From a virus (lineage: Duplodnaviria > Heunggongvirae > Uroviricota > Caudoviricetes), in the IMG/VR virus record IMGVR_UViG_2700989363_000008, positions 1-31,580 of that record: DNA of 31,580 nt, one strand, 5' to 3'. The notes beneath the pieces were generated by a model. That model was given only the letters and a program-made list of their open reading frames with translations. It did no database searches and was not told the origin of the DNA. The translations under genes were made by a program, and so were the position numbers. Below are positions 23,031-24,944 of the stretch, in pieces. Numbering within the stretch: the stretch's first letter is position 1; the number at the start of each line of letters is the position of its first letter.

Positions 23031-24944
23031 TTAGCCGAAATATGTCAGCCATGCTAACTGCATTGCTGACATGGGGCTGTTTGCACTGCCTGACCACGCA
23101 TAATTCTGGCCATTATAATGAAACTCGACAACGTATGAGCCATCACCAATATTTCTCACTGGCTTAAATACCGGCTTAGATACAGGCGAAGAAGGTGCAG
23201 GCGGTTGCTGTTCTTCTACGCTCTCTTCCTCTTCCTCTTCCTCTTCCTCTTCCTCTTCCTCTATCTCAATTTCGTCGTCATCCAGATCGTCATCCTCTGA
23301 TAATTCATCCGCCAGTTCAGGTATTGCTTCCAGTTCTTCTTCGTCAGGCATAACGATTTCTGGAGTATCTATTTTCAGTTGCCATTGTCCGTTTTCGCCA
23401 ACAAATTGCCCCAGAGCATCAGCAGCAAATTCCAGGTATCGACTAATCATTGTTGGGCTAAATTTGAACGCTCTTAGAGTGCTGTTCGTGATTTTTATAG
23501 AGGGGTCCTGCTCTACCAGCTGCTTAACTGTGTTATGCAGACGAACCCCGGCATCTCCTCTGGCGAATCCAGGCATTTCGTCATCAAGCTGCTGCAATGC
23601 TTCCAGCCTGGTATTTTCGTTTCCAGTATTTGGCCTCCATGTCTTTGAGAAGTTGGCCAGCTTGAATTGCTTATAGTGTAATTGAGTGTTTTCATCGTCA
23701 TGGCCTAAAATTTCCATAAAGAAAACATCTTCATCTACGTTTTTCCAACGAGGATCTACGCGGAAAAACATTTCATACGCAATACGGGCATAAATAGCAC
23801 GACTATCTTTATAAACACGGCGGTCATCTTTGAAAAATGATTTAACCCACGGGTTAAAAGCCTTTGCTAATATGGCATTAATACGTCCGTTTTCAGAGCG
23901 TGTGTCGTTATCTCCATAACCTTTAACGACATCATCAAAATCAGATGCTGCTGGGCATGAGCGAAGTACATTTATTAAATAAACAAATGTTTTTGCTTCG
24001 CATAATGTATATATTTTTCTGGTTATATCATCAGAAGTTCTTTTTTTAGCTTGGCCTAAAAAATCAACGGTATACTTACCAGAAACAGTAAATGTACCTT
24101 GATACATAATCTCAATCATTCGTCTTCCTGACAATGCAGCAAGTGCAAATGCCAAAGGAGCCATACCTGAACGAGTGTTTAGATTATTTAATGTAGCAGG
24201 GCTATTTATAATATCGTAAATAGCTTGCATATATTTAGGGTAATCAATGACCACCACGTTACGTTTCTTATTGTGCAGAACGTCCGCCCATCGTTGCTGG
24301 ATAGATGCACGTTCGGCAGGGCTTAGTTGAAGATGATAGAGAATCTCATGGTTAACTTTTAGCTGATTCAACTCCTCAAGCAAGGCAGATCCTTGCTGTA
24401 GTAATTTATATAAATAATCGCGCTTATCTTTCCAGTTATCGCTAGTTAAATCAGAAATGGCGAATTGCCACTCTTTATATTTATTTGATAATTTTAATAA
24501 CTTATTATGACTTTTGTTATCACCAATTCTGATATTAGATAAATCTTCTGATAAAGGGAGAATTAATTTTAATTTTGCCTGTAAAGCTGACATTCTCTGG
24601 CGAATATCGGCAGCAGGTAGAGAAAGCCATGACAATAGCTCCTCATTATATAAAGGATACTTTTCAGATAGGCGATGTATATTTTTTTCAAAGCTATGAT
24701 GAAGTTTATCATCAAACCGTTTTCTGGCCCTGCTCATATAGGCATTGAATGTGTTGGCTGTAATTCTTTTTTCTAATCCTTTCCCCCTAAACTTTCGCTT
24801 GTCATTAAATAATGCATTTTTAAATTTTAATGCAACAGCCTTTATTTTTTTTGTTTTTTCCCCTTGAGGACGGTCAGAGTTATCTATTGACTCAACATCG
24901 CTAACAAGTGAGTTTATTAATTCACCGATTTTTACTTTGCTCAT
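23031..24944 (-). CDS. telN: Protelomerase (telomere resolvase), TelN-like (637 aa)
   Basis: N-terminus MSKVKIGELIN... and overall length match N15 TelN as recalled; diverges from sopA across a telRL-like palindrome. Contains a poly-Glu tract. Confidence 0.85.
   Translation of the reverse strand: MSKVKIGELINSLVSDVESIDNSDRPQGEKTKKIKAVALKFKNALFNDKRKFRGKGLEKRITANTFNAYMSRARKRFDDKLHHSFEKNIHRLSEKYPLYNEELLSWLSLPAADIRQRMSALQAKLKLILPLSEDLSNIRIGDNKSHNKLLKLSNKYKEWQFAISDLTSDNWKDKRDYLYKLLQQGSALLEELNQLKVNHEILYHLQLSPAERASIQQRWADVLHNKKRNVVVIDYPKYMQAIYDIINSPATLNNLNTRSGMAPLAFALAALSGRRMIEIMYQGTFTVSGKYTVDFLGQAKKRTSDDITRKIYTLCEAKTFVYLINVLRSCPAASDFDDVVKGYGDNDTRSENGRINAILAKAFNPWVKSFFKDDRRVYKDSRAIYARIAYEMFFRVDPRWKNVDEDVFFMEILGHDDENTQLHYKQFKLANFSKTWRPNTGNENTRLEALQQLDDEMPGFARGDAGVRLHNTVKQLVEQDPSIKITNSTLRAFKFSPTMISRYLEFAADALGQFVGENGQWQLKIDTPEIVMPDEEELEAIPELADELSEDDDLDDDEIEIEEEEEEEEEEEEESVEEQQPPAPSSPVSKPVFKPVRNIGDGSYVVEFHYNGQNYAWSGSANSPMSAMQLAWLTYFG
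23225..23260. repeat. Hexanucleotide microsatellite (CTTCCT)x6 within telN, encoding a poly-Glu run
   Basis: Six perfect tandem CTTCCT units on the plus strand (GAG/GAA codons on the coding strand). Confidence 0.9.

Follow-up and report, generated by a model that had tools for sequence, protein, structure and literature searches.

A length-variable, in-frame hexanucleotide repeat in the acidic linker of a protelomerase from N15-like phage-plasmids

The window analysed here is the whole 31,580-nt stretch of the IMG/VR virus record IMGVR_UViG_2700989363_000008 (Caudoviricetes), and the feature of interest is a perfect hexanucleotide repeat within its telN-type protelomerase gene, the copy number of which was found to differ among close relatives. 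The gene is located on the minus strand at positions 23031–24944 and encodes 637 amino acids followed by a stop codon. It was identified from its Pfam domains and from matching records annotated as protelomerase or telomere resolvase. The Pfam matches were TelK_N (residues 4–78), muzzle (81–198), ResT/TelK catalytic (257–427) and stirrup (443–533), all above their gathering thresholds with E values from 4.5e-25 to 1.3e-50, and the protein was 77% identical to N15 TelN over its full length. Residues R275, K300, H415 and Y424, which we take to belong to the TelK/TelN active site and to include the tyrosine nucleophile, were invariant in an alignment of 56 sequences.

A first-pass annotation made from the sequence alone had placed a (CTTCCT)x6 microsatellite at 23225–23260, and both these coordinates and the unit count proved exact. 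The maximal perfect period-6 tract extends slightly beyond them, covering 40 nt at 23223–23262 and reading as (GAGGAA)6.67 on the coding (minus) strand, with 100% matches and a score of 80 in Tandem Repeats Finder (TRF). It is the sole long microsatellite of the 31.6-kb window, the next longest period-6 tract being 14 nt. Among 300 dinucleotide-preserving shuffles of the window, the longest period-6 tract averaged 13.3 nt and never exceeded 17 nt, so the 40-nt tract is a perfect tandem repeat well beyond chance expectation.

On the minus strand the tract reads as six GAG GAA units followed by GAG, in frame within the 637-aa open reading frame (ORF). Bases 23223–23261 thus specify 13 consecutive Glu codons, corresponding to residues 562–574 in the context LDDDEIEI-E13-SVEEQQPP, in agreement with the in-frame poly-Glu tract of the first-pass annotation. 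Glu codons elsewhere in telN are GAA and GAG in proportions of 0.70 and 0.30 respectively, and under this usage the probability of strict GAG/GAA alternation over 13 codons is ~9e-5. This indicates that the periodicity is a property of the DNA rather than a by-product of encoding poly-Glu. The array is adjoined by a GAGATA unit (23262–23267, minus strand; Glu560-Ile561), which sequence comparison identified as a single copy in the window.

Three other possible roles for the tract were considered and set aside. The plus-strand ORF at 23195–23353 (52 aa, a Leu-Pro repeat) was rejected as a gene because it is a mechanical by-product of the repeat and its length would shift with each allele. Internal translation initiation from the Shine–Dalgarno-like GAGG/AGGA motifs was rejected because none of the start codons ATG, GTG and TTG is found within a usable distance downstream of the array; the first GTG beyond it is more than 60 nt away. 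Formation of H-DNA or triplex by the 41-nt homopurine run would not be expected to involve perfect triplex pairing, as GAGGAA is not mirror-symmetric.

To place the tract in the protein, an AlphaFold2 model of the window protelomerase built on 56 homologues was used. The enzyme body was modelled with good confidence, and residues 535–588 (23181–23342, minus strand) had a predicted local distance difference test score (pLDDT) below 50, with block means of ~30, and form a predicted disordered acidic linker. Asp and Glu make up 53% of the overlapping 64-residue segment DTPEIV...PSSPVS. The linker is followed by a small C-terminal domain, CTD2 in the N15 nomenclature, at residues 589–637 (23034–23180, minus strand), with a pLDDT of ~90 over residues 590–637. 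The description of an acidic linker between the catalytic core and the C-terminal domain was therefore essentially right, and can be refined to a linker between the stirrup (CTD1, the match to which ends at residue 533) and CTD2 (residues 590–637). When the last 59 residues were modelled alone, a three-strand sheet followed by one helix was predicted with a mean pLDDT of 86.8. A fold search of the PDB with this domain returned no significant match (best E = 0.068), and the weak resemblances found, at template modelling scores of ~0.5, were to the beta-beta-beta-alpha part of double-stranded RNA-binding domains and to a phiKZ neck protein. For N15 TelN, the function of the C-terminal domains is stated by the authors to be unknown (PMC12624138).

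Directly upstream of the array lies the motif LDDDEIE, the core of which is formed by the D557-E558-I559 codons (23268–23276, minus strand). Across the 56 homologues, which extend down to 56% identity, D557 and E558 were invariant and I559 was at least 90% conserved. This conservation directly beside the array indicates that the linker is not a featureless spacer, and the motif may be a docking site for another partner or for the enzyme's own body. Five Salmonella homologues (P0089, P0090, P0093, P0097 and P0102; 682–713 aa) have an additional C-terminal module that follows the first (…PRPRLQLVDGWWTS.IE.DGKT.VYIEMEGSRD…). Judged by eye, this module resembles a duplicate of the small C-terminal domain, in which case the tail would be modular.

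Close relatives of telN, with 96.6–99.2% identity by megablast, were found in three collections, namely phage records (two, YDC107_1 and PhiR46_1), plasmid records (29, from E. coli, E. albertii, E. fergusonii and Shigella sonnei) and complete E. coli genomes (17 of 5426, always on plasmids). Full-gene match lengths, including those of unfetched records, ranged from 1884 to 1926 nt in 6-nt steps. The loci compared comprised 14 megablast-matched records, 42 IMG/VR loci and 39 metagenome loci. The IMG/VR and metagenome searches used residues 1–538 as the query, with the poly-Glu left out; a full-protein query of IMG/VR returned only two loci, being swamped by the back-translated EEEEEEEE pattern.

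Among the 41 close-clade sequences, with telN genes ~97–99% identical, the array took the form (GAGGAA)n GAG with n = 1, 2, 3, 4, 5, 6, 7, 8 or 12, corresponding to 3–25 Glu residues, and the window allele (n = 6) is mid-range. Array lengths ranged from 15 to 81 nt and were all equal to 3 modulo 6, giving an odd number of Glu residues in every case, and no 3-nt steps or out-of-frame array alleles were present among these sequences. The comparison of repeat number across isolates proposed in the first-pass annotation thus gave 1–12 copies changing in whole 6-nt steps, and its expectation that a 6-nt unit would preserve the reading frame held for all 41 alleles.

Further signs of duplication by whole units were present. 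They consisted of a variant unit GAAGAT present three times in L011, a GAGGAG interruption in L005, a doubling of GAGATA in six relatives (L014, L015, L021, L024, L025 and L074) and a duplication in 12-nt register with GAGATA inside in L067.

The same stepwise pattern was seen at the protein level. The 90% protein cluster of the clade contained 682 distinct sequences, with listed lengths of 629–639 aa in 2-residue steps, each member being present on several to more than 100 contigs; one exact 631-aa protein occurred on 103 contigs and one of 629 aa on 42. The exact window protein was not present in the 15-billion-sequence protein collection. When only the last 55 residues of the protein were used as a query, no candidates were returned, seemingly because of a word-index limitation.

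To compare the array with its surroundings, 37 complete genes were aligned with the array masked, giving 1872 columns, 162 segregating sites and 27 haplotypes. Within two of these haplotypes array length varied, with n = 3 and 5 in the first and n = 5 and 7 in the second. Pairs of longer loci gave the same picture. A chicken isolate (L014) and a human isolate (L015) had no mismatches over 3126 aligned nt, their sole difference being a 12-nt gap in the array. Over 3602 aligned nt, L008 and L020 had three mismatches and a 12-nt array gap, and L017 and L061 had two mismatches over 2793 aligned nt and an 18-nt array gap. Array length therefore differs by 2–3 units (12–18 nt) between otherwise identical loci, which bears out the earlier description of the tract as slip-prone, in-frame and polymorphic.

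On a neighbour-joining tree of the 37 taxa, array length required at least 22 changes by Fitch parsimony, close to the mean of 24.9 obtained on permutation, indicating that little phylogenetic signal is left in array length. A single nucleotide site required at most five changes on the same tree, and the 1872 other sites together required 222. By this comparison of sequences, the array changes faster than anything around it and is hypermutable in relative terms. The alleles are nonetheless heritable, as L009, L010 and L059, from unrelated sources and with 0–1 mismatches over ~3 kb, all carry n = 2, and as single proteins recur on 42–103 contigs. The latter observation also points to moderate stability of the array.

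The wider family was then considered. N15 TelN and phiKO2 TelK share with the window protein the domain order TelK_N, muzzle, catalytic, stirrup, acidic linker and small C-terminal domain, and their loci share the identical 22-bp telO core ~180 bp upstream of the gene and the neighbours sopAB, repA and a C4-type antisense RNA. In contrast, the linkers of N15, phiKO2 and dozens of relatives are non-repetitive and of near-constant length, and the (GAGGAA)n array is restricted to the Escherichia/Shigella clade that includes the window and the phages YDC107_1 and PhiR46_1. In the N15 clade, twelve distinct linkers were all 57 aa, one more was 58 aa and the proteins were 631 aa; in the phiKO2 clade of Klebsiella, proteins were 640–641 aa, with single exceptions of 638, 639 and 643 aa. 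The linkers of both clades are equally acidic, the D/E content across family members being 42–61%, and the longest tandem tract in the scanned N15-clade linkers was 21 nt with a period of 12. The first-pass annotation had named invariant copy number, together with non-repetitive codons in relatives, as grounds for abandoning its view; invariance was not seen in the window's clade, and the N15 and phiKO2 relatives do have non-repetitive codons and near-constant length.

At the position of the array, N15 reads ...GAA GAG GAA GGG..., and a sequence of this kind is a plausible seed for the array. Small duplications of their own were found in other clades, with DEDEIDL present twice in L044 and EPEEPEEP in L038. 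The linker is thus permissive in general, with a true microsatellite only in the clade of the window.

The surroundings of the gene in the window follow the N15 arrangement. A 42-bp telRL-type palindrome, the predicted target of the enzyme, is located at 25115–25156 (no strand assigned; centre 25135/25136), ~180 bp upstream of the telN start codon and between telN and sopA. Its 22-bp core, CCATTATACGCGCGTATAATGG at 25125–25146, is identical in N15-clade and phiKO2-clade loci, and these 22 bp carry the annotation 'telL site' at the extreme end of phage PhiR46_1. The neighbours of telN include sopA and sopB (25592–27723) and a 1327-aa RepA-sized ORF (16901–20884). A C4-type antisense RNA module with its targets was found on the plus strand at 21431–21631 with matches above the Rfam gathering score, comprising C4 antisense RNA at 21544–21631 (82 bits), isrK at 21444–21517 and the c4 a1/b1 targets at 21431–21483. 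The combination of telN, telRL, sopAB, repA and C4 identifies the window as an N15-like linear phage-plasmid, and because the palindrome between telN and sopA is intact, the window shows the element with telRL uncut, in its phage or joined form.

Several further features of this region were recorded. The C4 module is of the P1/P7 antisense immunity type and lies upstream of a BRO-N family (antirepressor-like) gene at 22076–22858 on the plus strand. The BRO-N gene has an in-frame stop at 22241–22243 (...EKGVT*SYTPGG); the close relative L007 reads ...EKGVGSTDTLGG at this position and continues as a single 260-aa protein. The window version of this gene is a pseudogene or, alternatively, a nonsense allele. 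AT-rich degenerate repeats with AACACAAT (ATTGTGTT on the other strand) are present at 24975–25084 and 25237–25304, and also at 25607–25628; they are inverted relative to each other and flank the telRL palindrome on both sides, and TRF reported a period-13/37 array at 25229–25304. These repeats resemble those flanking N15 telRL, which have been mentioned as possible extra TelN binding sites (PMC12624138). Just downstream of sopB, an Rfam match to IS009 RNA was found at 27790–27993 on the minus strand (126 bits against a gathering score of 117).

Published truncations bear on the role of the linker. Deletions of residues 445–631, 541–631 and 583–631 have been made in N15 TelN (Houmel et al., EMBO J 2025, PMC12624138), and in vitro the purified 541–631 and 583–631 deletions retained full telomere-resolution activity and inhibited Mre11-Rad50 (SbcCD) as wild type did. 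In vivo, all of the truncations protected hairpin-ended DNA, only with arabinose induction (PMC12624138). In the TelN alignment, residues 562–574 of the window protein fall inside the 541–631 deletion. Likewise, TelK538, which is without this region, has been reported as an active truncated form of the enzyme, and the TelK crystal structures were obtained with it (PMC3575837). In N15 TelN, the region with the homologous linker is dispensable in vitro for telomere resolution and SbcCD inhibition, and partly dispensable in vivo (PMC12624138).

These observations are best explained if the tract is a true coding variable number tandem repeat (VNTR) that drifts rapidly as a near-neutral length polymorphism through misalignment by whole units, and we consider this explanation likely. 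We infer that during replication the perfect (GAGGAA)n array would misalign by whole 6-nt units, each event adding or removing Glu-Glu pairs. Either slipped-strand mispairing or an unequal exchange involving sister or dimer copies may be the source, and the present data do not separate the two. Mismatch repair in E. coli recognizes loops of 6 nt poorly, a weakness that would promote instability of this kind. Since the unit length is a multiple of three, every product would remain in frame. The disordered acidic linker would serve to tether the small C-terminal domain to the enzyme body, with most lengths tolerated, as would be expected in a predicted disordered segment that proved dispensable in experiments. 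The array would have been born in one Escherichia/Shigella clade of N15-like phage-plasmids from a non-repetitive ancestral acidic linker. The length polymorphism is real but probably harmless.

Several points weigh against this explanation. Near-neutrality is inferred, and the family-wide conservation of the linker's acidity and of the DDEI motif just upstream of the tract indicates that the linker is under some selection. The observed range, mostly 1–8 units with a mode of 3–6, could reflect selective bounds or length-dependent mutation. The count of 22 changes is approximate, as recombination may distort the tree. Finally, n = 12 is the least secure allele, the CP019258 assembly that carries it having 1-nt indels elsewhere.

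An alternative is that array length is an adaptive tuning knob, in which poly-Glu length modulates TelN and high mutability lets the phage-plasmid re-tune the enzyme rapidly in new hosts. Length could act through the reach of the tethered C-terminal domain. Alternatively, it could set how strongly an acidic segment that mimics DNA competes, within the same molecule, for the basic DNA-binding surface. Acidic tails are known to regulate DNA binding elsewhere, as in HMGB1, the C-terminal tail of SSB and T7 gp2.5, and this analogy favours tuning, as do the hypermutability of the array relative to its surroundings and the family-wide conservation of the acidic linker and of the DDEI motif directly upstream. 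The need for overexpression of N15 truncations in vivo (PMC12624138) is a further point in its favour. However, no phenotype is known for any array length, the region is dispensable in vitro for both known activities (N15 TelN and TelK), and a linker that is fixed and non-repetitive suffices in the sister clades. Single alleles also persist, both on 42–103 contigs and in the identical n = 2 haplotypes from unrelated sources (L009, L010 and L059), and in-frame changes provide no on/off switch in a gene outside the surface, antigen and restriction-modification class typical of contingency loci. We therefore regard adaptive tuning as unlikely. The array as an evolvable regulator of TelN, with the LDDDEIE linker folding back as a DNA mimic or setting the reach of the C-terminal domain, seems improbable. 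If it were true, the clade could retune telomere binding, turnover or end protection only a few generations after changing host, and a contingency-type mechanism would be operating on a replication enzyme instead of a surface gene.

The first-pass annotation had gone further in suggesting a potential contingency locus, and this label was not supported. In the classical contingency loci conceived by Moxon and colleagues, simple-sequence repeats in phase-variable genes of Haemophilus, Neisseria and Campylobacter have units of 1, 2, 4, 5 or 7 nt, which shift the frame or promoter spacing and switch surface or restriction-modification genes reversibly at high rates. The telN array resembles these in being a hypermutable simple-sequence repeat inside a gene, with slippage presumed, and its hypermutability is apparent on comparative grounds (at least 22 length changes against at most five per nucleotide site). 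It differs in that the 6-nt repeat never shifts the frame, all 41 alleles being in frame and none acting as an on/off switch. The gene class is also atypical, as the product is a telomere resolvase, an intracellular DNA enzyme, rather than a surface protein, antigen or restriction-modification component. No switchable phenotype is known, and alleles persist on many contigs.

It is also possible, at a low probability, that selection acts on poly-Glu at the protein level and that the DNA periodicity is incidental, the lengths having arisen from ordinary indels or from recombination of diverged alleles. The acidic linker is indeed present in all family members (42–61% D or E), recombination among these phage-plasmids is plausible and some sites need up to five changes on the tree. 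Against this, strict GAG/GAA alternation over 13 codons is improbable (p ~9e-5), all alleles hold the 6-nt register and an odd Glu count with no 3-nt steps, and otherwise identical sequences differ in the array alone. A protein-level origin of this kind is very unlikely.

Mis-assembly or consensus error in a low-complexity tract is the least credible source of the copy-number differences and is already largely refuted. Errors do occur in several of the source assemblies, among them palindromic joins wrongly made across the hairpin and telN frameshifts of 1 nt in L011 and L013. However, arrays of 15–57 nt fit within the length of an Illumina read, and copy number differs by complete 6-nt units, with no changes of 1–2 nt. 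Identical alleles were found repeatedly across independent isolates, contigs of IMG/VR and metagenomes of ENA. In addition, both telN arms of the palindromic assembly CP019258 carry n = 12, both telN copies in three other palindromic assemblies share one protein accession, and the collection proteins of 629–639 aa change in 2-residue steps, each on several to more than 100 contigs. On the assemblies themselves, six records (CP088379, CP088738, NZ_CP014491, NZ_CP031108, NZ_CP126957 and NZ_CP019258; loci L005, L007, L008, L012, L014 and L098) were deposited as circular plasmids of 27–77 kb, and each contains two telN copies in head-to-head orientation, separated by ~380 bp and placed around the telO core. 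Their structure suggests palindromic mis-assembly caused by read-through of the hairpin telomere of a linear plasmid. In L011 (NZ_LR883007) and L013 (NZ_CP019258), telN is annotated as two fragments owing to 1-nt indels outside the repeat, and these fragments most likely reflect long-read consensus errors rather than real pseudogenes.

The telN array has counterparts among the coding VNTRs used for bacterial typing, such as vrrA of Bacillus anthracis, the Ser-Asp repeats of staphylococcal Clf/Sdr proteins and loci for multiple-locus VNTR analysis in E. coli prophages. In common with these it is a short in-frame tandem repeat in which copy number varies among close relatives and which encodes a low-complexity peptide of changing length in a flexible region. 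It differs in that the telN product is not a surface protein but a DNA-processing enzyme of a phage-plasmid, and in that the unit is only 6 nt and the product homopolymeric Glu. The array is thus in kind an ordinary in-frame VNTR in an unusual host gene. A literature search, of incomplete coverage, found no prior description of this repeat.

For annotators and assemblers, the finding means that length differences in telN are real. As the fastest-changing site in a very conserved region, the array could serve as a fine-scale typing marker for the N15-like phage-plasmid clade in E. coli, Shigella, E. albertii and E. fergusonii. Our understanding of protelomerases is unchanged by the finding. For the enzyme itself, the natural series of linkers with 3–25 Glu indicates that TelN does not depend critically on the distance from the stirrup to the C-terminal domain. 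This point can help in the engineering of TelN and TelK for linear-DNA production, and the natural array alleles provide ready-made probes of C-terminal domain function.

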